Below, piece after piece: positions 1,023-21,730 of a DNA stretch of 64,000 nt. The translations under genes and the position numbers were made by a program. The notes under the pieces are model-generated. The model searched no databases and was not told the origin of the DNA. It was given only the letters and a program-made list of their open reading frames with translations. This DNA comes from Planctomycetota bacterium (lineage in GTDB: Bacteria; Planctomycetota; UBA1135; UBA2386): positions 2,112,001 through 2,176,000 of the forward strand of contig JBKAGP010000001.1 of assembly GCA_046290465.1 (NCBI GenBank). The letters run 5' to 3'. Each line of letters starts with the position of its first letter. Within the stretch, counting starts at the first letter, position 1.

Positions 1023-1039
1023 TTCTCGGAGACAGCACG

Positions 1040-2527
1040 ATGAGCGAAGAACAGAAGAACGAATCGCAGCAACCCGAAGCTGCCGAAGCCCAGGGCTTCT
1101 CGCTGCTCGACGAGATCATGGAGCAGACCAAGATGTCGCCGGACGACGAGAGCTACGCCGTCGCCCGCCGCGGCGTCGAGGCCTTCATCGGCGAGATGCT
1201 CGCGCCCAAGAGCGCCTACGAGAAGGCCGACAAGACGGCCGTCGACCAGATGATCGCGGAGATCGACCGCAAGCTGAGCGGCCAGATCGACGAGATCCTG
1301 CACCACAAGGACGTGCAGAAGCTCGAGTCCGCCTGGCGCGGTCTCAAGTTCGTGATCGACCGCACCGACTTCCGCGAGGGCAACAAGGTCGAGCTGCTGA
1401 ACATCAGCAAGGAGCAGCTGCTCGAGGACTTCGAGGACAGCCCCGAGGTCGTCCGGTCGGGCCTCTACAAGCTCGCCTACACGGCCGAATACGGCCAGTT
1501 CGGCGGCGAGCCGTACGCCGCGATGATCAGCAACTACGACTTCGGCCCCGGCGCCCAGGACGTCGCGCTGCTGCAGAACTGCGCCAGCGTGGCGTCGATG
1601 GCGCACGCGCCGTTCATCGCCGCCGCCGGCCCGAAGTTCTTCGGGCTCGACGACGACTTCCAGGGCCTCGCCAACCTGAAGGACCTCGACTCGGTGTTCG
1701 AGGGCCCGCAGTACACCAAGTGGAACTCGTTCCGCGAGTCCGAGGACGCGCGCTACGTCGGGCTGACCGCGCCGCGCTTCCTGCTGCGCACCCCCTATGG
1801 AGAAGACAACCCGGTCAAGGCGTTCGACTACAAGGAGAGCGTCGACTCGGGTCACAACAGCTACCTGTGGGGCAACACCGCGTTCGCGTTCGCGACCAAG
1901 CTGACCGAGAGCTTCGCCCAGTACCGCTGGTGCCCGAACATCATCGGTCCGCAGTCGGGTGGCGCGGTCGAGGACCTGCCGCTGCACCAGTACGAGGCCA
2001 ACGGCGCGACCGAGACCAAGATCCCGACCGAGCTGCTGATCTCCGAGCGTCGTGAGTACGAGCTCGCCGAGCAGGGGTTCATCCCGCTGTCGATGCGCAA
2101 GGGCAGCGACAACGCCTGCTTCTTCTCCGCCAACTCGACGCAGAAGGCCAAGTCGTTCGGCACCAGCAAGGAGGGCAAGGAGGCCGAACTCAACTACCGC
2201 CTCGGCACCCAGCTGCCCTACATGTTCGTGATCAACCGACTGGCACACTACATCAAGGTGCTCCAGCGCGAGCAGATCGGCAGCGCCAAGGACCGAAGTG
2301 GCCTCGAGCGCGAACTCAACAGCTGGCTGTCGCAGTACGTCGTCGAGGACGACAACCCGTCGCCGGACGTGCGGGCGCGCCGTCCGCTGCGCGAGGCCAA
2401 GATCCTGGTCGAGGACGTCGAGGGTGAGCCGGGCTGGTACCGGGTGCGCATGCAGGTCCGGCCTCACTTCAAGTACATGGGCGCGATGTTCACGCTGTCC
2501 ATGGTCGGCAAGCTCGACAAGGACTGA
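1040..2527 (+). CDS. tssC: T6SS contractile sheath large subunit
   Basis: LESAWRGL, EYGQFGGEP, HAPFIA, YLWGN, RLAHYIKV, RPHF motifs. Confidence 0.97.
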   Translation: MSEEQKNESQQPEAAEAQGFSLLDEIMEQTKMSPDDESYAVARRGVEAFIGEMLAPKSAYEKADKTAVDQMIAEIDRKLSGQIDEILHHKDVQKLESAWRGLKFVIDRTDFREGNKVELLNISKEQLLEDFEDSPEVVRSGLYKLAYTAEYGQFGGEPYAAMISNYDFGPGAQDVALLQNCASVASMAHAPFIAAAGPKFFGLDDDFQGLANLKDLDSVFEGPQYTKWNSFRESEDARYVGLTAPRFLLRTPYGEDNPVKAFDYKESVDSGHNSYLWGNTAFAFATKLTESFAQYRWCPNIIGPQSGGAVEDLPLHQYEANGATETKIPTELLISERREYELAEQGFIPLSMRKGSDNACFFSANSTQKAKSFGTSKEGKEAELNYRLGTQLPYMFVINRLAHYIKVLQREQIGSAKDRSGLERELNSWLSQYVVEDDNPSPDVRARRPLREAKILVEDVEGEPGWYRVRMQVRPHFKYMGAMFTLSMVGKLDKD

Positions 2528-2544
2528 TGCGGCTGCAACGCGGC

Positions 2545-2593
2545 CGGGACGGGACCGTTACCCCTCGCACCTGCGAGAGGGTCCCGCTCCCGG
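2545..2593 (+). other. Long imperfect GC-rich hairpin between tssC and hcp
   Basis: CCGGGACGGGACC...CTCGCA-cc-TGCGAG...GGTCCCGCTCCCGG; no U-tract. Confidence 0.4.
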
Positions 2594-2687
2594 CGATCGC
2601 GCCGAGCTTCCTCACCCCCACACCAAGACCGAGTCCGTTCCCCAACCAGTGGCGGCCGACGCCGCCTGAGCCCAGGAGAGATCAGTT

Positions 2688-3170
2688 ATGGCAAGTATGA
2701 AGGTATTCATGAAGGTCGAAGGCATCGCCGGCTCCTCGATGGAGAAGGGCCGCGCCGACTGGAGCGACGTGCGTGGCTTCGACCACCTGCTGCAGTACCC
2801 GTTCGACATGCGCGACAACCGCGGCCGCGGCGAGCCCGAGCACGGTGCCTGCACGGTGACCAAGGAGATCGACAAGGCCTCGCCGAAGTTCTACGAGGCG
2901 CTGGCGAAGAAGAAGAAGATCGACTCGATCCTGCTCGAGTTCGAACGCGACAAGCCGGGCGAAGGCTCGACCGAGGCCTACTTCCGCATCGAGCTCGAGG
3001 ACTGCCGCGTGATCACGGCGCGCCCGCACGTCCCGAGCCCGACCGGCGGCGGCGAGAACGCTCCCCCGCACGTCGAAGAGATCGGCTTCGCCTACCGCAA
3101 GATCACGTGGACCTGGGATTCGGGCGGCGCGATCGAGACGACCTTCGACTTCAGCGACCCGCAGGCCTGA
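2688..3170 (+). CDS. hcp: T6SS tube protein Hcp
   Basis: FMKVEGIAGSS, TVTKEIDKASP, EEIGFAYRKITW; 160 aa; locus context. Confidence 0.93.
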   Translation: MASMKVFMKVEGIAGSSMEKGRADWSDVRGFDHLLQYPFDMRDNRGRGEPEHGACTVTKEIDKASPKFYEALAKKKKIDSILLEFERDKPGEGSTEAYFRIELEDCRVITARPHVPSPTGGGENAPPHVEEIGFAYRKITWTWDSGGAIETTFDFSDPQA

Positions 3171-3200
3171 GCTGCCTGCACCTGACGCAGCCGCAAGACC

Positions 3201-3617
3201 ATGCCTCTCTCCGATTCGACGCTGTTCGAACGGCTGCGTGATGACCGCGCGGCCAGGGAACCTTCGATGTCCCTGGACCGCGCCCGCCTGCGACAGTCGA
3301 TCGCCGCCAACCTGGAGCGCATCTTCGGATCGCGCGAGATGCACGCCCCCGCCCAACTCGAGTACGGCATGCCCGACCCGAACACGATCCTCCACGCGCA
3401 GGACGGCGGCGCCGAGCTGCTCCGCAAGCGCCTGAAGGAATGCGTCGAGCGCTACGAACCGCGGCTCCAGAAGGTGCGCGTGCTGCACATCGAATCGGCC
3501 GAGCTCGGCCACCAGATCCAGTTCTCCCTGCACGCGACGCTGCAGAGCAACCCACCCGAGCCGATCACCCTCGACGCGACGATCGCGGCCAACGGCCGCA
3601 TCGCCGTGACCGTCTGA
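3201..3617 (+). CDS. tssE: T6SS baseplate TssE (gp25-like)
   Basis: TLFERL...SIAANLERIFGSR...YGMPD...YEPRL. Confidence 0.9.
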   Translation: MPLSDSTLFERLRDDRAAREPSMSLDRARLRQSIAANLERIFGSREMHAPAQLEYGMPDPNTILHAQDGGAELLRKRLKECVERYEPRLQKVRVLHIESAELGHQIQFSLHATLQSNPPEPITLDATIAANGRIAVTV

Positions 3618-3627
3618 CCTCCTCCCC

Positions 3628-5322
3628 ATGTTCGCGAAGTACTACCAGGACGAGCTCGCGTGGCTGCGCGAGATGGGCGCCGAACTCGCCAACGCGCGCC
3701 CGGAGATGGCCCGCTACCTCGGCGAGCCGGGCGCCGACCCGGACGTCGAGCGCCTGCTCGAGGGCTTCGCGTTCCTGACCGGCCGGATCCGCGAGAAGCT
3801 CGACGACGAGTTCCCCGAGCTGACCCACGGCTTCATGGACATGTTCTGCCCGCACTACCTGCGGCCGATCCCGTCCATGACGATCCTGCAGGTCACGCCG
3901 AAGCCGAACCAGAACGTCGCCGGCGTCACCGTGCCACGCGGCACCCCGATCGACTCGGTGCCGATCGACGGCACCCGCTGCCGCTTCCGGACCACCGCCG
4001 ACTTCCGTCCGGCGCCGTTCGAGCTGCTCGCCCTGACGTTCACGATCGGCCATCCGTCCCGGCTCAACCTGCAGCTGCGTGCGCGCGGCGGCAGCGGCCC
4101 GATTCGCCTGCACCTGACCGGCGACAGCCAGGTCTCTCGAGCGCTCTACGTCGCGCTCTGCCACGGCGTCGCACGGATCCGCGTCAAGGCCGACGGTGCG
4201 ACCACCGAGCGCGCCGACATCCGCATCCGACCTGCCGGCCTCGCCGACGACGAGGCCGCGCTGCCGCTGCCACCGGGCGCGTTCCGCGGCTTCCGGCTGC
4301 TGCAGGAGTACTTCGCGTTCCCGGACCGCTTCCTGTTCGTCGACGTCGACGGCCTCGACAGCATCCGCGGCGACTGCGAACTCGAGTTCGAGTTCGGCGA
4401 ACTGCCGGAGAACATGCCGCCGGTCGCGCTCGCCAACGTCGTGCTCGACTGTGTGCCGGCGATCAACCTGTTCCCGCACGACGCCGACCCGGTGCGCGCG
4501 GAGGCCGGCCGCACCGAGTACCGGATCCGCCCGTCCGGCAAGGACTGGCAGCACTTCGAAGTGCACACCGTGCAGAAGGTGTCCGGCCGGGTTCGCGGCG
4601 GCACCAGGCAGGAGAGCTACGAGCCGTTCTTCTCGTTCCACGGCCGGGACCGCAGCGCGGCGCGCTACTACCAGCTGCGCCGCAACGAGTCGGTGTCGAC
4701 CGAGGGTTCGGACACCTACCTGCGGCTCGGCGCGACCGACCCCGACGCGTGGTCGGAGCTGGACACGATCAGCATCGAGACCACCTGCACCAACCGCAAC
4801 CTGCCGACCCGACTGGGCCCCGGCGACATCGCGACGCCGACCACCGAGACGCCGGGCGCGTTCCAGTTCCGCAACCTCGGATCGCCCTCGGCGCCGATCC
4901 AGCCGCCGCTCGGCGACGAGGTGCACTGGCGGCTGCTGTCGCACATGACCCTCGACCTGCGCCGCCTGGCGGATCGCGACTCGCTGTGCACGGCGCTGGC
5001 CCTCTACGACTTCCGCGCTCGCACCGACCGCCAGGCGCGCCGCCGCCTCGACAACCTGCTCGGCGCGATCGCCGACGTCGGCTCCTGCCGCGGCACCGAG
5101 CTGCTCGACGGCGTGCCGGTGCACGGCACCGAGATGCAGGTCCGGATCGACGAGGAGAAGGCCGGCGGCGAAGGCGAGGTCTACCTGTTCGGCACGGTGC
5201 TCGACGAACTGCTCGCGCAGTACGTGTCCCTCAATTCATTCTCCCGCCTGCGCATCCACTGCACCGGCAACAACGAGGTCTTCCGATGGAACGCGCGGAT
5301 CGGACGCCGGATCACCCTCTGA
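3628..5322 (+). CDS. tssF: T6SS baseplate TssF
   Basis: YYQDELAWLRE, DPDVERLLEGFAFL, LLQEYFAFPDRF, PAINLF, TCTNRNLP, SLNSF. Confidence 0.95.
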   Translation: MFAKYYQDELAWLREMGAELANARPEMARYLGEPGADPDVERLLEGFAFLTGRIREKLDDEFPELTHGFMDMFCPHYLRPIPSMTILQVTPKPNQNVAGVTVPRGTPIDSVPIDGTRCRFRTTADFRPAPFELLALTFTIGHPSRLNLQLRARGGSGPIRLHLTGDSQVSRALYVALCHGVARIRVKADGATTERADIRIRPAGLADDEAALPLPPGAFRGFRLLQEYFAFPDRFLFVDVDGLDSIRGDCELEFEFGELPENMPPVALANVVLDCVPAINLFPHDADPVRAEAGRTEYRIRPSGKDWQHFEVHTVQKVSGRVRGGTRQESYEPFFSFHGRDRSAARYYQLRRNESVSTEGSDTYLRLGATDPDAWSELDTISIETTCTNRNLPTRLGPGDIATPTTETPGAFQFRNLGSPSAPIQPPLGDEVHWRLLSHMTLDLRRLADRDSLCTALALYDFRARTDRQARRRLDNLLGAIADVGSCRGTELLDGVPVHGTEMQVRIDEEKAGGEGEVYLFGTVLDELLAQYVSLNSFSRLRIHCTGNNEVFRWNARIGRRITL

Positions 5323-6305
5323 TCGCGGCGCTGCGGCGGCGCAGCAGCGAGAGCGCGTTCCACGAGCTGGTGCGCGTGATCGAGTCGTTGCCCCGGCGAA
5401 ACGACCAGGTCGCGGTCGGCCACCAGGGGCCGCCGTCGCGCGAGGGCGTGCGATTCGAACCGGCGCTCGACTTCTCGTTCGGACCGAGCGAGGTCGACGC
5501 GCTCGACTACGACGAGCAGCACGACCGCTACCGGCTGGTCAGCCGCTTCTTCGGCCTCTACGGCACGCACTCGCCGCTGCCGGCCCACTACACCGAACAG
5601 CTGCTCTACGAGGATCCCGACGGCCGCCTGCGCGCGTTCCTCGACATCTTCAACCACCGGCTGCTGTCGCTGCGCTACCGCGCCTGGAAGAAGTACCGCC
5701 ACAATGCCCAGTTCGACGGGCGCGGCGCCGATGCGACGTCGATGCGGATGCGGATCCTGGCGCATCTCGAGCGCCTGGGCGAACCGATCGCGATGCTCGG
5801 GTTCGCCGGCCTGCTGCACCAACAGCCCCTGTCCGAGGCCACGCTCGAGCAGATCCTGCAGCACAGCCTCGAGGTCCCGGTCGAGGTGCATTCGTGCCAT
5901 GTGCGATGGGTCGCGGTGCCGCCCCACCAGCGCAACGCGCTCGGCCGCGACAACTGCACGCTCGGCGGCCTCTGCGCCCTCGGCGGCGAGGTGCGCTCGG
6001 CGACCACCGCGTTCCGCGTCGTAGTCGGCCCGCTCGACTACAAGCGCTTCAAGACGTTCCTCCCGGGCGGCCGCCGGCGCGAGGCGCTGGTCGCCCTGAT
6101 CGACCGCCTCAACGGCGACCAGCTCGACTGCGAGATCGCCGTCGAGATCGCCGCGGACGCGATCGAACCGACCTGGCTCGGCGAGAAGCGTCAGGGCCTC
6201 GGATGGAACACCTGGCTCGGCGAGGACGCGTCGGAGCTGGCCCCCACTCTGGGCGACACCGTGTCGCGCACCCTCCACTCTCCCAGCAATCCTCAGCTCG
6301 CCTGA
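5286..6305 (+). CDS. tssG: T6SS baseplate TssG
   Basis: FFGLYGTHSPLPAHYTE, FLDIFNHRL, FLPGG, LGWNTWLG; start placed at ATG 5286 overlapping tssF. Confidence 0.92.
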   Translation: MERADRTPDHPLIAALRRRSSESAFHELVRVIESLPRRNDQVAVGHQGPPSREGVRFEPALDFSFGPSEVDALDYDEQHDRYRLVSRFFGLYGTHSPLPAHYTEQLLYEDPDGRLRAFLDIFNHRLLSLRYRAWKKYRHNAQFDGRGADATSMRMRILAHLERLGEPIAMLGFAGLLHQQPLSEATLEQILQHSLEVPVEVHSCHVRWVAVPPHQRNALGRDNCTLGGLCALGGEVRSATTAFRVVVGPLDYKRFKTFLPGGRRREALVALIDRLNGDQLDCEIAVEIAADAIEPTWLGEKRQGLGWNTWLGEDASELAPTLGDTVSRTLHSPSNPQLA

Positions 6306-8944
6306 TGGTCGACGTCGACATCAAAGCAATCGTCTCCCGGCTCAACCCTTCGTGCACGCGCGCGCTCGAGCGCGCCGCCGGCATGAGCGTCTCGCGGCAG
6401 CACCACGAGATCACCGTCGAGCACATGCTGGCATCGCTGCTGGAGGATCCCTACACCGACGTGCAGAGCATCCTCAAGCACTTCGGCATCGATGTGGGCC
6501 GCCTGCAGAAGGCGCTCAACGGCACGCTCGACCAGCTGCGCACCGGCAACACCGGGCGACCGGTGTTCTCGCCGACGCTCGTCAGCTGGCTCAAGGACTC
6601 GTGGGTCCTCGGCTCGCTCACCCACCGCGACTCGAAGGTGCGCTCGGGCCACCTGGTGCACGCGATGCTCGACGGCGGCATGCGCATCTGCGGCGGCGAC
6701 TACGCGACGCTGCTGGAGCAGATCAAGAAGAGCGAGCTGTCCGAGAAGCTGGACGAGATCACCTCGGACTCGTCCGAGCAGGGCGAGATGCAGGAGGCGA
6801 ACGCGGCTGCCGGCGGCGGCTCACCGGCAGGTGCCGCGCCGACCGGCGACAGCGCGCTCGAGAAGTTCTGCACCAACCTGACGCAGCGCGCCCGCGACGG
6901 CCACATCGACCCGATCTTCGGCCGCGATCGCGAGATCCGGCAGATGGTCGACATCCTGGCGCGACGCCGGAAGAACAACCCGATCATCGTCGGCGAGGCC
7001 GGCGTCGGAAAGACCGCTCTGGTCGAAGGCCTGGCGATCAAGATCGTCGCCGGCGAGGTCTCGGAGCAGCTCAAGGACGTCGACCTGTTGACGCTCGATC
7101 TCGGTCTGCTGCAGGCCGGCGCCAGCGTGAAGGGCGAGTTCGAGAACCGACTCAAGAACGTCATCGACGAGGTCAAGGCCTCGGAGAAGCCGATCATCCT
7201 GTTCATCGACGAGGCCCACACGCTGATCGGCGCCGGCGGCGCCGCGGGCTCCGGCGACGCCGCCAACCTGCTCAAGCCGGCGCTGGCGCGCGGCGAGCTG
7301 CGCACGGTCGCCGCGACCACCTGGTCCGAGTACAAGAAATACTTCGAGAAGGACCCCGCGCTGGCGCGCCGCTTCCAGCCCGTCAAGGTCGACGAGCCCG
7401 ACACCGACACCGCGATCGGCATGCTGCGCGGCCTGCGCGGTCGCTACGAGGACGCCCACGGCGTGGTCATGCAGGACGACGCGGTCGTCGCCGCCGCCGA
7501 GATGGCCAGTCGCTACATCGCCGGCCGCCAGCATCCCGACAAGGGCGTCGACCTGATGGACACGGCGTCGGCACGCGTGCGGATCTCGATGGCGGCCAAG
7601 CCCGGCGTCATCGAGGACCTCGAGGCCCGCATCCAGACCGCCGAACGTGAGAAGGACGCGCGCGAACGCGACCGACAGAACGGCGCCCCCGATCTCGACG
7701 CACGCATCGAAGAGCTCGGGCACGAACTGACCGGGCTCGCCAGCCAGCGCGACGAGCTGACGAGCCAGTGGCAGACCGAGAAGGAGCTCGCGACCAAGGT
7801 GCTGGACCTGCGCGACCAGGTCGTCGAGGCGCGCGCGAGAGACGACGAGGCCAAGGCCACGGATCTGCAGGCGCAGGCCAAGGCGGCGCTCGACGAACTG
7901 CGCAGCAAGCAGGGCAAAGAGGCGCTCGTGCACGTCGAGGTCACGCCCGAGGTCGTCGGCCAGGTGATCGCCGATTGGACCGGCATCCCGGTCGGCAACA
8001 TGATCCGCGACGAGGCCAAGCTGCTGCTCGAACTCGAGCACGAGCTGGTCCAGCGCGTGAAGGGCCAGGATCACGTCATGGGAACGATCGCCGAGGGCAT
8101 CCGCGCCGCCAAGGCCGGACTCAAGGCGCCGGAGGTGCCGATGGGCATCTTCCTGTTCGTCGGTCCGAGCGGCGTCGGCAAGACCGAGACCGCCCTGGCG
8201 GTCGCCGACCTGCTGTTCGGCGGCGAGCGCTTCATGACGACGATCAACATGTCGGAGTTCAAGGAGAAGCACAACATCTCCAAGCTGATCGGCTCACCGC
8301 CGGGCTACGTCGGCTACGGCGAAGGCGGCCAGCTGACCGAAGCGGTGCGGCAACGTCCCTACTCCGTGGTGCTGCTCGACGAGTGCGAGAAGGCCGACGT
8401 CGAGGTCATGGAGGTGTTCTACCAGGTCTTCGACAAGGGCGTGCTCTCGGACGGCGAAGGGCGCGACGTCGACTTCAAGGACACCGTCATCTTCCTGACG
8501 AGCAACCTCGCGACCGACATCCTGACCGAAGCGGGGATGAGCGAGAACCCGCCGGATCCCGAGACGCTCGCGTCGATGATCCGTCCGGCGCTGTCGGCGC
8601 ACTTCAAGCCGGCGCTGCTGGCGCGCATGACGATCGTGCCGTTCTATCCGCTGAAGCCGGAGGTGCTGCAGATGATCACGCGCCTGAAGCTGGGCAAGAT
8701 CGTGAAGCGCCTGAAGGAGACGCACGACATCGACGCGACGTTCTCCGACGCGGTCGTCGACGCAATTGCCGCGCGCTGCACCGAGGTCGAGACCGGCGCC
8801 CGCAACGTCGACCACATCATCCGCGGCAACCTGCTGCCGCGCATGTCGCGGCAGCTGCTCGAGCAGATGAGCGGCGACGAGATGCCGTCGAAGCTCGAGG
8901 TCGTCGTCGACGAGCACGGCCAGTTCGACATGGAGTTCCGCTAG
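6305..8944 (+). CDS. clpV: T6SS AAA+ ATPase ClpV/TssH
   Basis: Two Walker A motifs (GEAGVGKT, GPSGVGKT), ILFIDEAH, PPGYVGYGEGG; TGATG overlap with tssG. Confidence 0.96.
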   Translation: MVDVDIKAIVSRLNPSCTRALERAAGMSVSRQHHEITVEHMLASLLEDPYTDVQSILKHFGIDVGRLQKALNGTLDQLRTGNTGRPVFSPTLVSWLKDSWVLGSLTHRDSKVRSGHLVHAMLDGGMRICGGDYATLLEQIKKSELSEKLDEITSDSSEQGEMQEANAAAGGGSPAGAAPTGDSALEKFCTNLTQRARDGHIDPIFGRDREIRQMVDILARRRKNNPIIVGEAGVGKTALVEGLAIKIVAGEVSEQLKDVDLLTLDLGLLQAGASVKGEFENRLKNVIDEVKASEKPIILFIDEAHTLIGAGGAAGSGDAANLLKPALARGELRTVAATTWSEYKKYFEKDPALARRFQPVKVDEPDTDTAIGMLRGLRGRYEDAHGVVMQDDAVVAAAEMASRYIAGRQHPDKGVDLMDTASARVRISMAAKPGVIEDLEARIQTAEREKDARERDRQNGAPDLDARIEELGHELTGLASQRDELTSQWQTEKELATKVLDLRDQVVEARARDDEAKATDLQAQAKAALDELRSKQGKEALVHVEVTPEVVGQVIADWTGIPVGNMIRDEAKLLLELEHELVQRVKGQDHVMGTIAEGIRAAKAGLKAPEVPMGIFLFVGPSGVGKTETALAVADLLFGGERFMTTINMSEFKEKHNISKLIGSPPGYVGYGEGGQLTEAVRQRPYSVVLLDECEKADVEVMEVFYQVFDKGVLSDGEGRDVDFKDTVIFLTSNLATDILTEAGMSENPPDPETLASMIRPALSAHFKPALLARMTIVPFYPLKPEVLQMITRLKLGKIVKRLKETHDIDATFSDAVVDAIAARCTEVETGARNVDHIIRGNLLPRMSRQLLEQMSGDEMPSKLEVVVDEHGQFDMEFR

Positions 8945-8949: not shown

Positions 8950-9618
8950 ATGCCCGTAGCGATCCACGATCAGGCGCTGCCGCGACCGCTGCCGGTCCCG
9001 GACCATGCCCGGCACCGCGGCTACCACCGCCGCTACGAGGTGCACGCGCGTGGCGGACGGTGCCAGCTCCAGCAGGTCCGCGTGCACATCCGCTACCTGT
9101 ACGGCGGCGAGCGCGTCGCCGACTACCGCCAGACCTACAGCGAGTTCTTCCGGTTCGAGCGCGACGACGCGAGCCTGGTCGACACCCACGACTTCGACCT
9201 GGCCCGCGACGGCTGGCGCCAGTCGGTCATCGTCGGCCTGGTTCGGCGCCACCGCGCCGAGGGCACGGCGCTGCCGACCGGCGAGGCCGAGCTCGACGTG
9301 CGCAAGCAGTTCTCGATCGCGCCCGGCGACGTGCGCGGGAACGCCGGCGCCGAGCTGCGACCGGGCGCGACGTTCGGCCTGTTGCGCGATGGCCCCGGGG
9401 GCCCGTCGCGGACCCGCCTGACGATCGCCCGAGGCGACGGCCTCCCCGTCGTGATCGACGACCTGCCCAGCTGCCCGCCCGGGTAGCCGGTCCAGGGGAC
9501 CGGTTCGTTCGCCACATCGCGTGGCGGCCGCGCGTTCGAGCACTACCGCTTCCGCTTCGCCAACCTGACCGGGCGGTTCGCCGACCGCGGCGGCTACCAC
9601 CCCATTCGCATCGCCTGA
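8950..9618 (+). pseudogene. Uncharacterised T6SS-linked gene with in-frame TAG at 9484-9486 (178 aa + 43 further codons)
   Basis: After the TAG the same frame continues with typical codon usage (PVQGTGSF...FEHYRFRFANLTGRFADRGGYHPIRIA) to TGA 9616-9618, 1 nt before the next ATG. Confidence 0.55.
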
Positions 9619-9619: not shown

Positions 9620-10195
9620 ATGAACCAGCCGACCCGACCCGTGGCGCAGCCAGCCCGTCCGTCGTTCCCGACCGGCGAACCGACCACCTACCTCGGCCCC
9701 GCCCGCGTCCTCGCCAGCGCAGGCGGACCACTGCGCGCCGTTCTCGAGGACGACGCAGCCACCGAGGTCGTGGTGCAGCCGGCGTTGACGTTCCCGTACG
9801 AACCGCACGAAGGCGACGTCCTGCTGGTGCTCGGCCAACCGTCGCAGCACTTCGCCGTCGGGGTGATCGCCGCCAGCAAGCCGCAGGGCCTGACGTTCCC
9901 CGGCGAGACCCGGGTGCACGCCAGCCAGGGCCGCCTGGTGCTGAGCAGCGACCAGGCCGTCGAGCTGCGCGCCCCGCGGGTCTCGGTGCGCACAGGACTG
10001 TTGCGCACGATCGCGACGCGTGTCGTCGAGAAGGCCGGCAGCATGCGCCGCTGGGTGCGCGGCGTGTTCGCCCTGCGCGCCGGCGAGTCCCGTCGGCTCG
10101 TCGACGGCCTCGACAGCACCCGCTGCGAGAACTCCACCACCCTCGCCAAGGACACCGTCAAGATCGACGGCGACCAGCTCCACCTCGGGCACTGA
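9620..10195 (+). CDS. DUF3540-family T6SS accessory protein (TagC-like)
   Basis: YEPHEGDVLLV and C-terminal AKDTVKIDGDQLHLG. Confidence 0.8.
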   Translation: MNQPTRPVAQPARPSFPTGEPTTYLGPARVLASAGGPLRAVLEDDAATEVVVQPALTFPYEPHEGDVLLVLGQPSQHFAVGVIAASKPQGLTFPGETRVHASQGRLVLSSDQAVELRAPRVSVRTGLLRTIATRVVEKAGSMRRWVRGVFALRAGESRRLVDGLDSTRCENSTTLAKDTVKIDGDQLHLGH

Positions 10196-13178: not shown

Positions 13179-16100
13179 GTGATCCATCAGAACCTGACAC
13201 CATTCGCGTGGGGACCCGTGGTCACCTCGCGCAAGGACAAGGACGTCGAGCTGGCGGTCTGCGTGCGGGGCACGTACACGCTCGTTCCCGGCGAACCGCC
13301 GGCGCCGATCGAGGACCCGCTCGAGCGCGGCTTCATGAGCGGCGAGACCTTCGCCGACGAGGACATCAACCAGCTCGGCGCGTCGCTGCGCGGCGACGAC
13401 TTCGCCCACTGGAAGCTGCACGGGGAGGCGCTGTTGCGCGGCAGCTTCCACCACGCGGACGGCACCGGTCGCGAGGGGGTCGCGCGGTTCTCGGTCGGAA
13501 CCTGGTCGAAGCAGATCCACGTGACCGGACCGCGCGCCTACAAGAAGGGCATGTTGCTCGGCGGCTCCGCTGGCGAACCGCAGCCGTTTCGGAGCATGCC
13601 GTTGACGTGGGAGAACGCCTATGGCGGCGCCGGCTACGCCAGCAACCCGGTCGGGCGCGGCTTCACCGGCGAGGAGCTGCCGACGCTGTCCTTGCCCGGC
13701 CAGCCGGTCCGCAAGATCGGCCAGCGTGACGTTCCGCCGGCGACGTTCCTGCCGATCAGTTCGCACTGGCCGCAGCGCAGCGGCAAGCGCGGCCGCAACT
13801 ACGGCAAGCAGTGGCAGAAGGCCCGCGCGCCGTTCTTCAGCGACGACTTCGACTGGACCTACTACCAGTCCGCACCACCCGACCAGTGGGTCGAGGGCTA
13901 CTGGCGCGGCGACGAGACGCTGACGTTCGAGAACCTGCACCCGACGCAGGCTCGCTGGCAGACGCAGCTGCCGGCGGTGCGCGTGCGGTCGTTCGTCAAG
14001 ACGACCGACGGCCGCATCCACGAGCCGGACATGCACCTCGACACCGTGTTCGCCGACGTCGACGACGGCAAGCTCTACCTGACCTGGCGGGGCCATGCGC
14101 CGATCCAGCGGATCGACATGACCGACGTCGCCGTCGTGTTGCTGGCACACGAGCCGCTCGCGGACGCGCCGACCGATGCGCAGGTCTACATCGACCAGCT
14201 GAAGGCGTTCGAGGACGACCCGGTCGGGCTGAAGGCTGCGTTCCCCGCGGGCTTCCTGATGTTCGCCGACGCCATCGAAGCCGTCGAGCAGGCGGAACTC
14301 GACGGAACGCCGATGCCCGACCTGCAGAAGGTGCAGGACGAACTGCCGCCCGAGTGCCCGATGCCGCCGTGGTTCCTGGCCGCCGTCGCCGGCGACGAGG
14401 ACCCTCTGGGCATCGAGGACAAGTTTCCGCCGGGCATGTTGGACGGCTCCGCAGCACCGGGGGCGGCCGAGGCCGGCGGGCTCGCCGATCCCGACACGCA
14501 GGCCGGCATGTTCGCCGACCTGGAGAAGCTCGGGGACGATCCGGGCCTCGCCGCCGAACTGCTCGACGGCATCGTCGGCCTGCTTCCGGCCGACAAGCAG
14601 GCCGGCCTCAAGGAGGGCATCCGCGCGCTCGCCGAGACGCTCGACGCGGTCAAGGCGGACGCGGGCGCCGACGTCTTCACCAAGGCGGCCACGGCCGCGA
14701 AGTCGTCACCTCCGGCGAAGCCTGCGGCGGAGAGCTACGGCGACATGATGGCCACCGCCAACGAACAGGTGTCGATCGCCGGCGACGCGGCCGACACCGC
14801 CGAGACCGCAGCCAAGGTCCAGGAGGCCCAGGCCAACCTCGACAAGGCGCCGCAGTCGCTCGACGATGCAGTGGCGCAGGGCCTGAAGCCGCTCGAGGAC
14901 ATCGACATCCCCGACGTCCCCGACCTGCCGGACGGCGACGCCGTGCTCGCGGAGCAGGCCGCGATGATCGATCGCGAAGAGGCGCGCATGCGCGACAAGC
15001 TCGGCGACCATCCGATGCTCGGCATCTTCGCGATGGGTCGCAACCTGATCGAGAACGCGCCGCGCCCCGGACAGCTCGCGCCCGACCTCAGCGCGATCCC
15101 CGCGGGGCTGCAGCGCGCCCAGCAAGCGCTCGCCGCGCAGGGTGTGTCGGCCGCCGCCATGGCGCCGCTTTCCGCGCTGATCGCCAAGGTCCAGACGCTG
15201 GTCGACAACTGCCCCAAACCGGACCCGCTGCCCGAAGGCGAGTTCGTGGCGCAGGACCTGCGTCGCCGTGACTTCTCGGGACAGGATCTGCGCGGGCAAA
15301 CCTTCTGCAAGGCCGACCTGACCGGCGCGCTGTTCTGCTCGGCGGACCTGACCGGCGCCGACTTCACCCAGGCGGACCTGACCAAGGCGGACCTGACCGG
15401 AGCGACGCTGACGGAGGCGACGTTCAAGCGCGCCAACCTGAGCAAGGCGCAGTTCACGAACGTCACGGCTCCGCGCGCTTCGTTCGCCGACGCCGACATC
15501 ACGGCGACGGACTTCGCCAACGCCGACCTGACCGGCGCGAAGTTCACCAACGCCCGCGGCGAGAAGGCCGACTTCGGCTCCGCCACGCTGATCGACGCAG
15601 ACGCGAGGTTCAGCGACCTGTCCAAGGCCGACCTCCGAGCTGCCGACCTCACCCGCGCAAACCTGTCGTTCGCGACCCTGCACCTGGTCAAGGCCGACCG
15701 CGCCGACCTGACCGAAGCCAACCTCGAACTCTGCAAGCTGACCCGCTCGCGACTGCATGACGCCGTGCTGCGGAACAGCCGCTCCACGATGGCCTTCTTC
15801 ACCGCGAGCAACCTGACCGGCGCCGACCTGCGCGGCTGCCGCTACGAGAAGTGCGACTTCTCCAAGGCGACGCTGGACCGCGCCGACCTGCGGGGCTCGG
15901 ACCTGAGCCACACCCTGTTCCGCGACGCCATCGCCACCGCGGCCGACTTCCGTGAGGCGGTGCTGACCGGCTGCTCCACCACCGGCGAAGCCCGCTTCAC
16001 GCAGTGCGACTTCCGGCATGCAGAGGGGCCGCGCAGCGTCTGGATGGATGTCGAGCTGACCGGCTCGACGTTCCGACACGGGGACTTCGGGCACGCCTAC

Positions 16101-16382
16101 TTCGACGGCGCCCGGGGCAGCGACATCGACTTCGTGGCGACGGGCCTGAAGTACGCCAACTTCCGCCGCGTCGAACTGTGCCGGGTGTCGTTCGCGTTCG
16201 CGGACCTCGCCGGGGCCGTGTTCCAGGACGCGACCGTCGACGACGGCGACTTCCAGCGCAGCAACTGCTACGACGCCAAGTTCCTCGGCGCCCGCGCCAC
16301 CCGCTGCCGCTTCTCCGATGCATTCCTGGTCGGCGTGCAGCTCGACGACCCCGACAACGAACCACCCGGAGGTGACCGATGA
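13179..16382 (+). CDS. DUF2169 adaptor fused via an acidic helical region to pentapeptide repeats (TagAB-like)
   Basis: PLTWENAYGG..NPVGRG, YYQSAPPDQW, LDTVFAD; C-terminal A(D/N)LxG repeats. Confidence 0.88.
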   Translation: MIHQNLTPFAWGPVVTSRKDKDVELAVCVRGTYTLVPGEPPAPIEDPLERGFMSGETFADEDINQLGASLRGDDFAHWKLHGEALLRGSFHHADGTGREGVARFSVGTWSKQIHVTGPRAYKKGMLLGGSAGEPQPFRSMPLTWENAYGGAGYASNPVGRGFTGEELPTLSLPGQPVRKIGQRDVPPATFLPISSHWPQRSGKRGRNYGKQWQKARAPFFSDDFDWTYYQSAPPDQWVEGYWRGDETLTFENLHPTQARWQTQLPAVRVRSFVKTTDGRIHEPDMHLDTVFADVDDGKLYLTWRGHAPIQRIDMTDVAVVLLAHEPLADAPTDAQVYIDQLKAFEDDPVGLKAAFPAGFLMFADAIEAVEQAELDGTPMPDLQKVQDELPPECPMPPWFLAAVAGDEDPLGIEDKFPPGMLDGSAAPGAAEAGGLADPDTQAGMFADLEKLGDDPGLAAELLDGIVGLLPADKQAGLKEGIRALAETLDAVKADAGADVFTKAATAAKSSPPAKPAAESYGDMMATANEQVSIAGDAADTAETAAKVQEAQANLDKAPQSLDDAVAQGLKPLEDIDIPDVPDLPDGDAVLAEQAAMIDREEARMRDKLGDHPMLGIFAMGRNLIENAPRPGQLAPDLSAIPAGLQRAQQALAAQGVSAAAMAPLSALIAKVQTLVDNCPKPDPLPEGEFVAQDLRRRDFSGQDLRGQTFCKADLTGALFCSADLTGADFTQADLTKADLTGATLTEATFKRANLSKAQFTNVTAPRASFADADITATDFANADLTGAKFTNARGEKADFGSATLIDADARFSDLSKADLRAADLTRANLSFATLHLVKADRADLTEANLELCKLTRSRLHDAVLRNSRSTMAFFTASNLTGADLRGCRYEKCDFSKATLDRADLRGSDLSHTLFRDAIATAADFREAVLTGCSTTGEARFTQCDFRHAEGPRSVWMDVELTGSTFRHGDFGHAYFDGARGSDIDFVATGLKYANFRRVELCRVSFAFADLAGAVFQDATVDDGDFQRSNCYDAKFLGARATRCRFSDAFLVGVQLDDPDNEPPGGDR

Positions 16383-18517
16383 CCTGGGGATCGCTCGACC
16401 GCGACACGGTCCTGCAGCGCATCGCCGGCGGCGAGCCGCTCGCCGACTGCTCGTTGTCCGACCTCGACCTCGGTGGCCAGTCGCTGCGCGGCGCGAACTT
16501 CGACGGCGCCGTGCTCGAGCGGATCGACCTCCGCGGCTGCGACCTGACCGGCGCCAGCTTCCGCGGGACCACGCTGCTGGACTGCCAGTTCGCCGAAGCG
16601 ACGCTGGCGGGTTCGCAGTGGTCCGGCTGCCATGCCCTGCAATCCGACTTCGCGAACCTCGACTTCGCCGGAGCAGAGGTGATCGGGAGCCAGTTCGTGC
16701 AGTGCCACCTACCGCACGCGAAGTTCGACGAGGTCCGCCTCGACCAGACGACCTTCGCGTCGTGCGCGATGTCGCGAGCGAGCTTTGCCGGGGCCAGCCT
16801 GCGCAGCGCCGTGCTCGCGCAGTGCGAGCTCGACGGCGCGCAGCTGGCCGGAGCCGACCTGACCGAAGCGACGCTCGCGCTGTCGAACCTCGAAGGCGCC
16901 GTGCTGCGCGATTGCAAGCTCGGGTTCGCGTCGCCGGCCAAGGCCAACCTGCAGGGTGCCGACCTGCGCGGCGCCGACCTCAACGAGACGATGCTCGCCG
17001 GCGCCGACCTGCGCCGTGCCGACCTGCGTGAGTGCAAGATGTCGCAGTCGCTGTTCGCCAACGCCGACCTTCGCGGCGCGCTGCTGCCGGCCGGCGAACT
17101 GCAGGGCCTGATGTTCAACAACGCCGACCTGACCGGCTGCGACCTGTCGCAGACCAGCCTGGTCAAGTGCATGCTCAACGGCGCGGTGCTCGACGCGGTG
17201 ACGTTCGGCGACGGGCAGGCGATCCGCGAGTGCCTCGCCAACGGTGCGTCGTTCCAGCACGCCACCTTCGCTCGCCTGCAGCTCGAACAGACCGTGATGG
17301 AGGACGCCGACCTGCGCGGAGCGGACCTGTCGCAGGCGACCGTCGCAACGACGCGCATGCCGCGCAGCGACCTGCGCGGAGCGCGCCTGCCCGAACGGCT
17401 GGTCGACTGCTCGTTCGCGCACGGTCGCCTCGACCCCGACACGTTGCGCGGCAAGGTGCTGACCGGCGCCGACCTCGAGGGCATCGACTTCGCCGGCTAC
17501 TGCTTCGACGGGTGCGACCTGCACCGCGCGTCGTTCCAGGGCTGCAACGTGCAGGGAGCCAGCTTCCGCGGCGCCCGGCTCGAGGCAGCCAACCTGCAGG
17601 AGTGCGACCTCGCCGGCGTCGACTTCACCGATGCGGACCTGCGGCACGCCCGCTTCGGCAAGGCGCGACTCGCCGGTGTCGACCTGTCGGGCCATGACCT
17701 GACCATGACGCAGTTCCGGGAGGCCGACCTGACCGGCGCCGACCTGACCGGCTGCGACCTGTCGATCGCCGACTTCGGCGACGCGAGGCTCGACCGCGCC
17801 AACCTCAGCCGCGTGCGTATGAACGGCGGCAGCCTGGCCCACGCCTCGATCGAGGGCCTCGTGCTCGAGAACGCCGAGCTGCACGGTGATCTCAGCGAAC
17901 TCGACTACGACCACCTGACGTTCCGCGGCCAGACCTTCAGCCGCTGTTCGTTCCGCGGCGCGGACCTCAGCGGACGCGACCTGTCCGGCTGCGACCTGAC
18001 CCAGAGCCTGTTCCACATGGCGAACCTCGCCGGCGCGAAGTTCACCGGCAGCCGCCTGCACCTGGCGAACTTCTGCGAGGCCGACCTCAGCGACGCCGAC
18101 TTCGAAGGCGTGACCGCGACGATCGCGAACTTCGCCAGGGCCACGATGCACGGGACCAGGCTGCGCGGAGCGAACCTGCGCAACGCGATCCTGCCCGAGG
18201 CCGAAGCGCTGCGTTGCGACTTCGGCGGGTGCGATCTGCGCGAGTCCGTCTGGACCCGGGCGGACCTGACCGGCAGCAGCTTCGTCGGGGCCAACCTGAC
18301 GCACGCCGAGATGAGCTACGCCACGCTCGACGGCTGCGATCTCGACATGAGTGATCTGACCTGGGCCAACCTGCACGGCGTGCTCGAGAAGGAGACGCGC
18401 TGGGGCAAGGCGATCCGCAGCAAGGCGCGCAAGACCGACGACGATCGCCTGCATGGCGAACACGGCTTCCGTCGCCCGACGCCCGAAGAACTCGAACGGA
18501 TGGGGATCGACCCATGA
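16379..18517 (+). CDS. Pentapeptide repeat protein (TagB-like)
   Basis: Nearly continuous ADLxG/ANFxx repeats over about 670 aa; ATGA overlap with upstream gene. Confidence 0.92.
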   Translation: MTWGSLDRDTVLQRIAGGEPLADCSLSDLDLGGQSLRGANFDGAVLERIDLRGCDLTGASFRGTTLLDCQFAEATLAGSQWSGCHALQSDFANLDFAGAEVIGSQFVQCHLPHAKFDEVRLDQTTFASCAMSRASFAGASLRSAVLAQCELDGAQLAGADLTEATLALSNLEGAVLRDCKLGFASPAKANLQGADLRGADLNETMLAGADLRRADLRECKMSQSLFANADLRGALLPAGELQGLMFNNADLTGCDLSQTSLVKCMLNGAVLDAVTFGDGQAIRECLANGASFQHATFARLQLEQTVMEDADLRGADLSQATVATTRMPRSDLRGARLPERLVDCSFAHGRLDPDTLRGKVLTGADLEGIDFAGYCFDGCDLHRASFQGCNVQGASFRGARLEAANLQECDLAGVDFTDADLRHARFGKARLAGVDLSGHDLTMTQFREADLTGADLTGCDLSIADFGDARLDRANLSRVRMNGGSLAHASIEGLVLENAELHGDLSELDYDHLTFRGQTFSRCSFRGADLSGRDLSGCDLTQSLFHMANLAGAKFTGSRLHLANFCEADLSDADFEGVTATIANFARATMHGTRLRGANLRNAILPEAEALRCDFGGCDLRESVWTRADLTGSSFVGANLTHAEMSYATLDGCDLDMSDLTWANLHGVLEKETRWGKAIRSKARKTDDDRLHGEHGFRRPTPEELERMGIDP

Positions 18518-19446
18518 TGCCAGCGGCCAACCAGGGGGTCGGGATGAACCTGGGCTTTCCGGACGTCTGCACGACGCCGGCAGCTCCTGCCCCGATCCCG
18601 ATCCCGTATCCGAACATCGGCATGAACGCGATGGCGATGCCGTTCGTGCCCAACGTGCTGGTGTCGTTCGCGCCGGCGCAGAACATGGCGGCCAAACCAC
18701 TGCTGACCAATGGCGACAACGCCGGCGTCGCCCACCCCTTGTTCATGCAGCCGGGCGGGACCACCGTCGGCAAGCCCAACCTGCTGGTCGGCGGCATGCC
18801 GGCAGGCCACCTGACCAACCCGACCTACGGCAACAACTTCAACAACCCGGTCGGCGCCAAGATCGTGCCCAGCATCACCAACGTGCTGATGGGCTACACC
18901 CCGTCGCTGACCCCGTCGCAACGGGCGTTCGGCGCGCGCCTGGTCCGCTCGGAGGGCAGCTCGATGCGCTGCACGGCCGGCCTGCTGCAGCTCCGGATCC
19001 CGTGCATCGGCCTCGGCACCGACCGGTGGCTCGCGCGGGGCCTGTCGCGGCTGCGCGGCGTCGCGATCCGCGCCGTCGCGCTCGACCTGCGTGGCAATCC
19101 CGGAGGCGTGATCACGGTCGCGGCCCGGCTCGCGCTGCTGCTGCTGCGCCTCGATGTGCCGATCGCCGTCGCCATCGACCGCGACACCGCATCCGCCGCC
19201 GAACTGCTCGCCACGGCGCTCGACGCCCGCACGTTCGGAGAGCGCTCCTTCGGCAAGGCCCGGGCGACGACGTTCGACGTGCACGCCGCGGACCTGTCGG
19301 CCCGCGGCGATGCCCCGACGGTGACGTTCGCACGAGCCGGCGGCGAGACCATCGACGGCGTCGGCCTGCCCCCCGACCAGCCGTGCGCACCCGAGCAGGC
19401 CCACGCCGAGTCGATCGCGTGGCTGCAGACCCGCCGAGCGACATGA
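18514..19446 (+). CDS. PAAR-like (DUF4150) domain fused to an S41-family peptidase domain
   Basis: N-terminal GFPDVCTTPAAPAPIPIPYPN; C-terminal LDLRGNPGG, TASAAE, GERSFGK, GVGLPPD. Confidence 0.85.
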   Translation: MMPAANQGVGMNLGFPDVCTTPAAPAPIPIPYPNIGMNAMAMPFVPNVLVSFAPAQNMAAKPLLTNGDNAGVAHPLFMQPGGTTVGKPNLLVGGMPAGHLTNPTYGNNFNNPVGAKIVPSITNVLMGYTPSLTPSQRAFGARLVRSEGSSMRCTAGLLQLRIPCIGLGTDRWLARGLSRLRGVAIRAVALDLRGNPGGVITVAARLALLLLRLDVPIAVAIDRDTASAAELLATALDARTFGERSFGKARATTFDVHAADLSARGDAPTVTFARAGGETIDGVGLPPDQPCAPEQAHAESIAWLQTRRAT

Positions 19447-20201
19447 CGGATCCATCGAACAACACCACCGACTGGCTGCAGGCATTCCTGCCGCTCGGCA
19501 CCGTTCGCAGCGACAGCTGGGAGCCGCGCGGCGGCGGCGTGCTGATCCTCGACCGTCCGGTCGTCTGGCTGGTCACCGGGCGCCAGGTCGTCGACCCGGT
19601 CGGCGACGAGGAGCTGGCCACCTGGATCCCGAACGAACGGGGCGTCGGGTTGCTCAACCTGACGCGCAACCAGCGCCAGACCGGCATGCCGTGGGTCCAC
19701 CACCCGGTCGGACTCAGCGCGGCCATGCTGCCGCTCGACCCGAGCTTCCGCATCAAGGCGTTCGCCGAGACCCAGTGCACGCGCGTTCGCGACCTGCAGC
19801 CGATGCAGCCGGCCGCCTCCGTCGGTCGACTCTACGGCCCCGACATCGCGCCCGACCAGGCCGCGCCGCCGGCGGTGCTCGACGGCATCATCTCGGCCGC
19901 CGACGCGAAGTCCGGCTCGATCTTCACGACCGCGCCGATGCTGCCGCGCAACCTCGGCGCTCCGCTCGTGCTGGCGTCGCCCTACGGTGGCCCGGTCACG
20001 CTCGCCGGCATCCTGCTCGGCAACACGATGGTCAACGAACCCGACCCGCGCATGCTGCCCGTTCGCCTCGGCCGGGCCATCTGCGTCGACGCCGCATGGG
20101 AACTGGTCCGCGGTGCGGAAGCCTCCGAGCAGCGTCGACGGGTCACGGCCAGTGAGGGATCCGACGACGCCGAGCGCAGCGACGAGGAGCCAACCGCATG
20201 A
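19443..20201 (+). CDS. Trypsin-like (PA clan) fold protein, catalytic residues apparently substituted
   Basis: Motif order GGGVLI / WLVTGRQVV / WVHHP / PAVLDGIIS / PRNLGAPLV / LAGIL parallels GTGF / LVTNRHVV / HPxxD / PGNSGGPV; ATGA overlaps on both sides. Confidence 0.6.
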   Translation: MTDPSNNTTDWLQAFLPLGTVRSDSWEPRGGGVLILDRPVVWLVTGRQVVDPVGDEELATWIPNERGVGLLNLTRNQRQTGMPWVHHPVGLSAAMLPLDPSFRIKAFAETQCTRVRDLQPMQPAASVGRLYGPDIAPDQAAPPAVLDGIISAADAKSGSIFTTAPMLPRNLGAPLVLASPYGGPVTLAGILLGNTMVNEPDPRMLPVRLGRAICVDAAWELVRGAEASEQRRRVTASEGSDDAERSDEEPTA

Positions 20202-20716
20202 GTGCGGCGGTCTACGTCGGTCCCGCCCGCGTGCTGCGCATGGACGGCGAACGCCCCCACGTCCAGGTGCTCGGCGGAGGCTGCGAGACGGCGACGGCGG
20301 ACTGGGCACTGCCGTTCCGCTACGAGCCGGCGACGGGCGACCTGCTGCTGGTGATCGGACAGAGCGGCCGCTACTGGGTGACCGGCATCGTGCACGGGGC
20401 CGGACGATCGCAGCTCGCGTTTGCTGGCCACACCGAGCTGAACGCGGCCGGCGGACCGCTGCACCTGTCCGCCGACGGCGGCGTTCGCATCCAGTCGCCA
20501 GCGGTCGGCGTCGAGGCCGATGTGTTCGAGACCGAGACGAACGCCACACACCAGCGGCTCGACCAGTGCGACAGCGAGGTCTCCGGCACCCTCGACGAGC
20601 GATCCGGGGAGAGCATGCGCGACATCGACGGCGAGGACGCGGTCACGGCTGCGCAGACCTCGACGGTGGCGGCGAGGGTCGCGAAGATCGACGGCGGCCT
20701 GCTGCGCCTCAGCTAG
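20198..20716 (+). CDS. Second DUF3540-family protein
   Basis: YVGPARVL, YEPATGDLLLV, AKIDGGLLRL; paralog of 9620-10195. Confidence 0.75.
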   Translation: MSAAVYVGPARVLRMDGERPHVQVLGGGCETATADWALPFRYEPATGDLLLVIGQSGRYWVTGIVHGAGRSQLAFAGHTELNAAGGPLHLSADGGVRIQSPAVGVEADVFETETNATHQRLDQCDSEVSGTLDERSGESMRDIDGEDAVTAAQTSTVAARVAKIDGGLLRLS

Positions 20717-20860: not shown

Positions 20861-21730
20861 ATGACGCAAGGTCACGACAACCAGGCACCCGACGGCGCGA
20901 TCGACGTCTCGTTCGATACGCTCGCCCGGCTGCTCGGCGGCGCGCGCGCGGCCGAGGCCCTTGCCGACCATGCCGACGCCGCACCGCACATCGCGGCGCT
21001 CGACGGTCCCGCCGCATGGCTGACGCCCGGCACCGACGCCACGACACCGAGCGCCGGCACCATCCGCCAGCTCGCGCTCGAGGTGCTGTCGCTCAAGCTT
21101 CGCACGTTCGCGGCGATCGTCGACCAGGTGCCGCCGCAGCTGCCGTCGCTGCCGCCCGAGCACGTTCGGGTGCAGCTGCTCGACGGCACCGGCCTGCCCG
21201 GCGCAAGGCGCTGGAACGTGCATGTGTCGCTCGTCGCCGGTGGCGGTGCGCCCGCCGACCGCGCCGCCGGTGCCGACGCCGGCCTGCGCACGTCGCTGGG
21301 TCGGCTGCTGGCGCGCCTGCTGTTCGAGAGCGACCGACGCCGTGGCGATGAGGCGCAGCAGCACGGCGTCGGCCTGGCCAGCACGTTCGCCACCGGCTCT
21401 GGCACGTCGCCCGCCGAGAACGCCGAACGCCTGTTCGCCAACGGTCCGGGCGGAGACAGCTCCGTGGTGCTGTTCTCGTCGGGGCATCGCGACCTGCTCG
21501 CGGGCAAGGCCCTGCCGGCAGGGCTGTGGGCGCAGGTCGGTGGACTGCTGCTACGTCTGCTGACGGACGTCTCCGAGTTCTCGCTGCCCGACCCTCCGAT
21601 CGACGCGTTGCGTCCGCGGCTTGCGCAGCTGATCCGACGACTCGACATCGCGACGTTCGGCGCCATCGCGCGGCGCGACGAGATCAGCGACCTGCTGCGC
21701 CAGAACCTGGCGCGCCTGAAGCAGGACTGA
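20861..21730 (+). CDS. Hypothetical protein at the end of the T6SS locus
   Basis: 289-aa ORF with genome-typical codon usage, co-oriented with the T6SS genes. Confidence 0.65.
   Translation: MTQGHDNQAPDGAIDVSFDTLARLLGGARAAEALADHADAAPHIAALDGPAAWLTPGTDATTPSAGTIRQLALEVLSLKLRTFAAIVDQVPPQLPSLPPEHVRVQLLDGTGLPGARRWNVHVSLVAGGGAPADRAAGADAGLRTSLGRLLARLLFESDRRRGDEAQQHGVGLASTFATGSGTSPAENAERLFANGPGGDSSVVLFSSGHRDLLAGKALPAGLWAQVGGLLLRLLTDVSEFSLPDPPIDALRPRLAQLIRRLDIATFGAIARRDEISDLLRQNLARLKQD

Follow-up and report, generated by a model that had tools for sequence, protein, structure and literature searches.

A PAAR-like spike tip with a predicted S41 protease domain, and its predicted catalytically dead trypsin-fold neighbour, in a Class III Tvp cassette of Planctomycetota

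Among the closest described relatives of the locus presented here are the Class III Tvp cassettes of type VI secretion systems (T6SS). According to the passages of PMC13373197 and PMC11883445 that treat tip assembly, a DUF2169 protein shields the PIPY-type PAAR tip, a pre-complex with TvpC forms and VgrG then replaces TvpC. The second relevant group is the S41 peptidases. In CtpB, the Gln that completes a Ser-Lys-Gln triad is reported to be essential (Q338E abolishes function; PMC3808539), and in the comparison drawn in PMC6686036 the PDZ domain is inhibitory in CtpA/B and stimulatory in Prc; its loss activates the former and disables the latter. Fusions of a PAAR tip with an S41 domain, labelled PAAR_E1 + Peptidase_S41_CPP, are listed in two surveys (6 rows in Data Set S2 of PMC8651086, 7 rows in Table S2 of PMC7714669), whose supplements class them, by prediction only, as peptidase toxins. 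Here we describe such a fusion, referred to as PAAR-S41 or the tip protein, in a 64,000-nucleotide stretch of the genome of a Planctomycetota bacterium (GCA_046290465.1, contig JBKAGP010000001.1, positions 2,112,001 to 2,176,000; hereafter the window), together with the gene that follows it, which encodes a predicted catalytically dead protein of trypsin/HtrA fold. An initial annotation, made from the sequence of the window, had proposed the two as a candidate new T6SS effector/partner pair.

The tip protein (310 aa) matches Tox-PAAR-like (PF13665) at residues 10-112 (E 3.3e-24; 85.5 bits against a cut-off of 31) and has a PIPIPY motif at residues 27-32. Its C-terminal part matches Peptidase_S41 (PF03572; E 7.6e-11, 42.3 bits against a cut-off of 24) and shares the DLRGNPGG motif with CtpA-type proteases, whereas the full-length Ctp models of NCBIfam all remained far under their cut-offs. 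In an AlphaFold 2 (AF2) model built on 73 sequences, the S41 domain (residues 141-310) reaches a predicted local distance difference test score (pLDDT) of 87-98 and aligns with Helicobacter pylori CtpA over 175 residues (Z 20.0, root-mean-square deviation [rmsd] 2.4 Å). The PAAR half was modelled poorly, with long stretches of residues 1-129 under a pLDDT of 50, and its assignment therefore rests on the Pfam match and the PIPIPY motif. By sequence and model, the protein thus joins a PAAR of the DUF4150/PIPY type to an S41 peptidase domain of CtpA fold, and is a predicted protease. This bears out the initial annotation as to the position of the S41 domain and its Ser/Lys motifs, the lack of a PDZ domain (no match in the Pfam search) and the uniqueness of the gene: it is the single PF13665 match in the genome, a count that covers PF13665 and not canonical PAAR (PF05488).

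The predicted active site is well conserved. Gly197 and Gly198 of the oxyanion motif, Ser227, Glu230 and Lys248 are invariant across 73 aligned homologues with a mean column identity of about 41%. Among the best 120 of 279 database matches, both Ser and Lys are retained in 115; one or the other is missing or unaligned in five, three of which are fragments. The domain around these residues changes quickly: identity to same-class orthologues is 36-45% for the S41 domain against 77-83% for the PAAR domain. Sorted by linker and insertion length, the 115 homologues comprise 28 with a PDZ-sized linker, 55 without PDZ which retain a beta-hairpin behind the GG helix, and 32, the tip protein among them, with neither PDZ nor this insertion of ~26 residues. 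The tip protein also has a Ser-Lys spacing of 21 residues, a 4-residue deletion unique to this copy (1/115). Its PDZ-less form had been taken to indicate an "ungated" protease, which does not follow from the lack of PDZ by itself, since PDZ inhibits CtpA/B yet stimulates Prc. A FastTree phylogeny of 70 of the 120 fused domains and 16 housekeeping CtpA domains (eight fragments or broken rows dropped, as well as alternate rows of both no-PDZ groups) separates the two sets by one branch with a support of 99; it gives no resolution on whether the PDZ is ancestral.

The 252-aa product of the following gene has no Pfam or NCBIfam match, and searches of PDB sequences with the protein and with its alignment gave no significant match; Trypsin_2 is matched by 6 of 25 members of its family. 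Its AF2 model (pLDDT 90) has MamO as top Foldseek match (E 6.8e-9) and aligns in VIA with AlgW over 185 residues (Z 19.4, rmsd 3.4 Å), and an Atlas model agrees on the trypsin/HtrA fold. A profile of the family aligns with 22 relatives in which the His, Asp and Ser motifs are intact (E 4e-69), and His and Ser are absent from all 23 close homologues. The protein is therefore, judging from model and alignment, a two-barrel trypsin/HtrA fold in which all three catalytic residues are lost and which is predicted to be catalytically dead. Structure searches thus matched both folds that the initial annotation had read from motifs, and the lost triad agrees with its reading of this neighbour.

In a quick maximum-likelihood tree of 87 rows, 39 proteins without His and Ser form a single clade with a support of 99. 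Asp is retained in 14 of them and His87 of an HH motif in 30, and a simple hydrophobicity check found no signal-peptide-like or lipobox N-terminus in any of the 39. Outside this clade, other family members have also lost triad residues. Many positions of the dead trypsin are invariant in two Planctomycetota classes, which suggests that its function is under selection. At 54-64% identity to same-class orthologues, it is about as conserved as the DUF2169 chaperone (61-63%), a weak hint from sequence at a conserved binding partner. Its active relatives have a different setting: in seven of eight loci tested, their immediate upstream neighbour is a gene for a CopG antitoxin or an HTH_3 protein, and once the relative follows DUF6932, while none of 23 metagenome loci, many of them short, had a match to the T6SS queries nearby. 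As a separate observation, active relatives stand at the end of small toxin-antitoxin-like operons (loci L099-L118, e.g. L101:9154-10777 and L106:503-2373), a possible three-gene toxin-antitoxin-protease module of CopG antitoxin, HTH_3 or DUF6932 with active trypsin relatives; one literature search found nothing on such operons.

The association of the dead trypsin with PAAR-S41 is real and confined to Planctomycetota; it goes back to a single cassette lineage and extends to a third gene, X. Among 339 genomes of the window's class, eight have a strong dead-trypsin match and the same eight have a full-length PAAR-S41 gene directly upstream; eight more have weak matches only (E 1e-4, over a short stretch), and a ninth genome has a PAAR of the PAAR-S41 type truncated by a contig end. 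PF13665 was found in 23 of 286 sampled genomes, 17 of them with S41-less forms only; none of these 17 has the dead trypsin, including two with TvpB-TvpC-PAAR cassettes. A second Planctomycetota class (18 genomes) has seven dead-trypsin loci in five genomes. There, the gene lies directly after PAAR-S41 in three loci, is separated from it by X in two, and in the other two follows TvpB/TvpC and precedes X, with PAAR-S41 about 8.7 kb away or the PAAR off the contig. In both classes together, all 15 genome loci have the dead trypsin inside a Tvp/PAAR-S41 cassette. A sample of 401 genomes of the phylum contained no additional lineage with it. These loci descend from one cassette lineage and are therefore not independent.

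Homologues of gene X occur in Planctomycetota PAAR-S41 cassettes and often adjoin the dead trypsin. Among five genomes probed, X is present in the trypsin-positive one and was not found in two Polyangiaceae and two S41-less Planctomycetota genomes. It has no Pfam, PDB-sequence or Atlas match. An in-frame stop in the gene, at 9484-9486 of the window, is seen in this assembly only, all four other sequencing runs having a sense codon. Two second-class loci also contain a 266-aa gene between VgrG and TvpC (L184:3613-4413), a homologue of which lies near the cassette of locus L005, at a contig end.

Outside this phylum, PAAR-S41 occurs in Polyangiaceae, the Sorangium family (30 of 141 genomes; 72 matches, 71 across both domains), and none of these 30 genomes has a member of the trypsin family, the two trypsin-positive Polyangiaceae genomes being different ones. 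The synteny expected of the pair thus holds in the eight genomes of the window's class and fails in four of seven second-class loci and in the 30 Polyangiaceae genomes. Neighbourhoods were compared for 30 Polyangiaceae loci from 29 genomes, one partial match having been left out. Directly upstream of PAAR-S41 is DUF3540 in 26 loci and a pentapeptide gene in the other four, and Ser and Lys were both parsed in 29. A COMMD-like gene flanks PAAR-S41 in 12 of the 30 loci, in either orientation (loci L208-L233, e.g. L223:830-1438 and L212:2635-3300); none was found in the source genome. A link of COMMD to VgrG/PAAR/DUF2169 clusters has already been reported in PMC13392464.

In the window, both genes are part of a single T6SS locus on the + strand (Table 1). 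FHA, TssJ, TssK, TssL, TssM and TagF lie directly upstream of the window, and TssA reaches into its start; the T6SS gene set is complete in the source genome, which is one contig and whose close relatives are named Planctomycetota. With DUF2169-pentapeptide, stand-alone pentapeptide, DUF3540 and DUF4150 genes together with VgrG, the cassette belongs to Class III of the Tvp systems. A 21-kb contig of an independent study spans 8800-20716 in one piece, and the gene arrangement is therefore no assembly artefact. The ATGA overlap between the PAAR-S41 and dead-trypsin genes, noted in the initial annotation, is present, and was rejected as evidence for their pairing: four consecutive junctions (16379, 18514, 19443, 20198) are alike, and the overlap is therefore a mark of the operon and not of the pair.

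Table 1. Features of the T6SS locus, with positions counted from the first nucleotide of the window
Feature	Coordinates	Strand	Basis
T6SS core (end of TssA, TssB, TssC, Hcp, TssE, TssF, TssG, ClpV)	55..8944	+	Profile searches
Gene X, conserved protein of Planctomycetota PAAR-S41 cassettes	8950..9618	+	Homologues in related loci
DUF3540-like (TvpC-type), first copy	9620..10195	+	35% identity to 20198-20716 product, E 5e-22
VgrG, 961 aa	10289..13174	+	TIGR03361 above cut-off; single VgrG match in genome
DUF2169 + pentapeptide repeats (TvpAB-type PAAR chaperone)	13179..16382	+	PF09937 E 1.4e-68; PF00805
Pentapeptide-repeat protein (TvpB-type)	16379..18517	+	PF00805 E 1e-103
DUF4150/PIPY PAAR-like tip + S41 peptidase (predicted), 310 aa	18514..19446	+	PF13665, PF03572, CtpA fold
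Ser227, predicted nucleophile (TAS*AAE)	19192..19194	+	Aligned with TASASE of solved CtpA; invariant in two alignments
Lys248, predicted general base (FGK)	19255..19257	+	Aligned with FGK of solved CtpA; invariant in two alignments
Trypsin/HtrA-fold protein, predicted dead, 252 aa	19443..20201	+	Predicted fold; triad columns Q48/G90/L171
DUF3540 (TvpC-type), second copy	20198..20716	+	PF12059 E 2.2e-08, above cut-off
Conserved 289-aa gene after cassette	20861..21730	+	32-36% identity in 6/6 same-class loci with sufficient flank

Several further features of the locus were noted. The two DUF3540/TvpC paralogues are likewise found in several relatives. Between its OB-fold region and its beta-prism, at about residues 510-720, VgrG has a linker of low complexity and an insertion that is variable, without a Pfam match; this insertion may represent a cargo domain or a target for cleavage. 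The 289-aa gene after the cassette has no Pfam or NCBIfam match, and in some same-class loci it stands behind an extracytoplasmic function (ECF) sigma factor or is part of a longer open reading frame (ORF). In two other sequencing runs, 2,467 bases are inserted just downstream of it (near 21742-21754). Further on, beyond a series of short ORFs (about 25300-29400), an ORF at 30588-31640 (-) has a start which we take to resemble that of an integron integrase.

The reading that we favour, with a probability of about 0.4, is that PAAR-S41 is a spike-delivered protease effector and that the dead trypsin and X are cytoplasmic, lineage-specific accessories of the cassette. From the domains, folds, conservation, context and distribution reported above we infer proteolytic activity, delivery, a target and the binding roles of the dead trypsin. 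The PIPY domain would be chaperoned by the DUF2169, pentapeptide and DUF3540 proteins and would then cap the single VgrG of the genome, as suggested by the Tvp literature; being the presumed tip of the only spike, the protease would be fired each time. Inside the target cell, this CtpA-derived Ser/Lys enzyme would cut proteins. Tethering to PAAR may have taken the place of the signal peptide and N-terminal domain, many lineages having probably lost the PDZ. Apparently cytoplasmic and non-secreted, the dead trypsin would stem from a single recruitment in Planctomycetota out of a protease family linked to toxin-antitoxin operons and, with X, may bind the tip or the cargo and hold it until the spike fires. 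Effectors are a common kind of C-terminal PAAR extension, and here the catalytic residues are kept in a fast-changing domain, which argues for an effector. The dead trypsin accompanies PAAR-S41 in one phylum only and is therefore probably a helper and not a universal antidote.

A number of points weigh against this interpretation. An antibacterial toxin should need immunity, and the 30 Polyangiaceae loci have no conserved co-oriented gene downstream of PAAR-S41, which is its weak point; these genomes moreover carry up to nine cassettes with the same S41 domain, unlike polymorphic toxins. The dead trypsin lies directly downstream of PAAR-S41 in 11 of the 15 Planctomycetota loci, and an accessory role is assigned to it by elimination. 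Gln at Lys+4, the CtpB triad residue, is found in 40 of 115 homologues and is Thr in the tip protein.

Two other explanations are both unlikely in our estimation. The first is a classical effector-immunity pair, in which an S41 enzyme toxic in the cytoplasm would be bound and inhibited directly by the dead trypsin, for example with a loop or tail as uncleavable decoy, while other inhibitors would serve elsewhere. The strict adjacency in the eight genomes of the window's class, the adjacency in three of seven second-class loci and the absence of the dead trypsin from genomes whose DUF4150 lacks S41 are consistent with it, as are the apparently cytoplasmic nature of the dead trypsin and the toxin-antitoxin-like operons of its active relatives. 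However, the dead trypsin is absent from all 30 Polyangiaceae genomes with the fusion, is parted from PAAR-S41 by X or by greater distances in four second-class loci, and is more conserved than the S41 domain that it would bind, near the level of DUF2169. The ATGA overlap is operon-wide and the co-occurring loci count as one lineage. Thus the linkage behind the effector/immunity proposal of the initial annotation is tight within Planctomycetota, but the dead trypsin does not behave as a cognate immunity gene of the whole family.

The second explanation, about as improbable as the first, is that the protease serves the maturation of its own machinery; the initial annotation had already named a spike-maturation protease as the alternative to an effector, and neither of these two roles is disfavoured by the present data. 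PAAR would dock on the C-terminal beta-strands of TvpC in the pre-complex or of VgrG, replace PDZ as the module recognising C-termini and aim the S41 domain at these proteins, so as to remove TvpC, clip the VgrG insertion or free cargo, with the dead trypsin timing or restraining the reaction. This would explain both the missing immunity gene of Polyangiaceae and the presence of one domain on many cassettes. All 30 Polyangiaceae loci are of Class III type, S41/CtpA enzymes are C-terminal processing proteases, and the VgrG of the cassette has its variable insertion before the beta-prism. In the parts of PMC13373197 concerned, both the exchange of TvpC for VgrG and a proposed cleavage of VgrG1 lack a known mechanism, although that cleavage is a proposal only. 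A tethered protease is not generally needed, however, because the PAAR stands alone in 69 of the 80 PAAR loci fetched and the Class III system of Serratia functions with a small PAAR that has no other domains (PMC13373197), and the fast divergence of the S41 domain is more effector-like. In its fuller form, with a tip-built protease acting on the TvpC pre-complex or VgrG and controlled in Planctomycetota by X and by a pseudo-protease of another clan derived from toxin-antitoxin-linked trypsins, we regard this explanation as a fairly long shot.

Finally, it is quite improbable that the S41 domain of the window's clade is weak or non-catalytic (a peptide-binding, cavity-filling or decaying module) and the dead trypsin merely co-inherited: the loss of PDZ, beta-hairpin and Gln, the Ser-Lys deletion of this copy, the five homologues with a dyad residue missing or unaligned and S41 frameshifts at one locus (L185; possibly assembly errors) point that way, but the invariant active-site residues, the confident CtpA-fold model and the many invariant positions of the dead trypsin across two classes do not.

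Few T6SS protease effectors have been characterised, and no tested S41 one was found in the literature searched. The PAAR-S41 family is large, spans two phyla, has culturable members and breaks the reported rule of enzyme-free Class III Tvp tips. If delivered as an effector, it would represent a new class of injected Ser/Lys protease, seemingly without a conserved immunity gene. If it acts in maturation, it would be a spike-borne processing enzyme bearing on the resolution of the TvpC pre-complex and provide a proteolytic route for exchange or cargo release. In addition, the dead-trypsin clade would constitute a new family of T6SS accessories, a pseudo-enzyme whose origin can be traced to toxin-antitoxin-linked proteases. 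As for novelty, the PAAR-S41 family is already catalogued in the supplements cited; what is new here is that it occurs in a stripped form at the tip of a Class III Tvp system. A full-text literature search found no study of PAAR-S41 and no dead-trypsin partner, although supplements of the Tvp, PIPY and COMMD papers may list such loci, and neither the dead-trypsin family nor gene X was found in print within the literature searched. Both are apparently undescribed, Planctomycetota-specific accessory genes.

Comparison with known systems places the locus as follows. The entries of Sorangium cellulosum So ce56 and Chondromyces apiculatus are the same DUF4150-S41 fusion (327-378 aa, three genes downstream of DUF2169), given as predicted toxins in those supplements and neither discussed nor tested there. 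The Planctomycetota form is shorter, without PDZ and beta-hairpin, and is accompanied by the dead trypsin and gene X, both of which Polyangiaceae lack. The Class III Tvp system found in Serratia marcescens (TvpAB, TvpB, TvpC and Paar1; PMC13373197), which corresponds to synteny type C of PMC11883445, resembles the window cassette in grouping VgrG, DUF2169-pentapeptide, pentapeptide, DUF3540 and DUF4150 genes. It differs in that such systems tend to be described with small PAARs lacking an effector domain (PMC13373197), whereas the tip here is the 310-aa PAAR-S41, and in that the window has DUF3540 in two copies plus two additional conserved genes. With the S41A proteases CtpA, CtpB and Prc the tip protein has the core fold, DLRGNPGG and the catalytic Ser and Lys in common; unlike them it has no signal peptide, N-terminal domain, PDZ or beta-hairpin, has Thr for the triad Gln and is fused to PAAR. 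The dead trypsin may be compared with MamO, a pseudo-protease of trypsin/HtrA fold with a degenerate active site which acts non-catalytically on a partner protease (PMC4794232); identity is 16%, the origins are independent, and MamO, a membrane-bound protein of the magnetosome, has an HtrA and not an S41 protease as its partner. The pair as a whole resembles the effector-immunity pair Cpe1-Cpi1, likewise a T6SS-delivered protease (presumed so for the window) with a downstream partner, except that Cpe1 is a papain-like Cys protease and that Cpi1, without an enzyme fold or structural homologue in the description given, always accompanies its toxin (PMC12136450).

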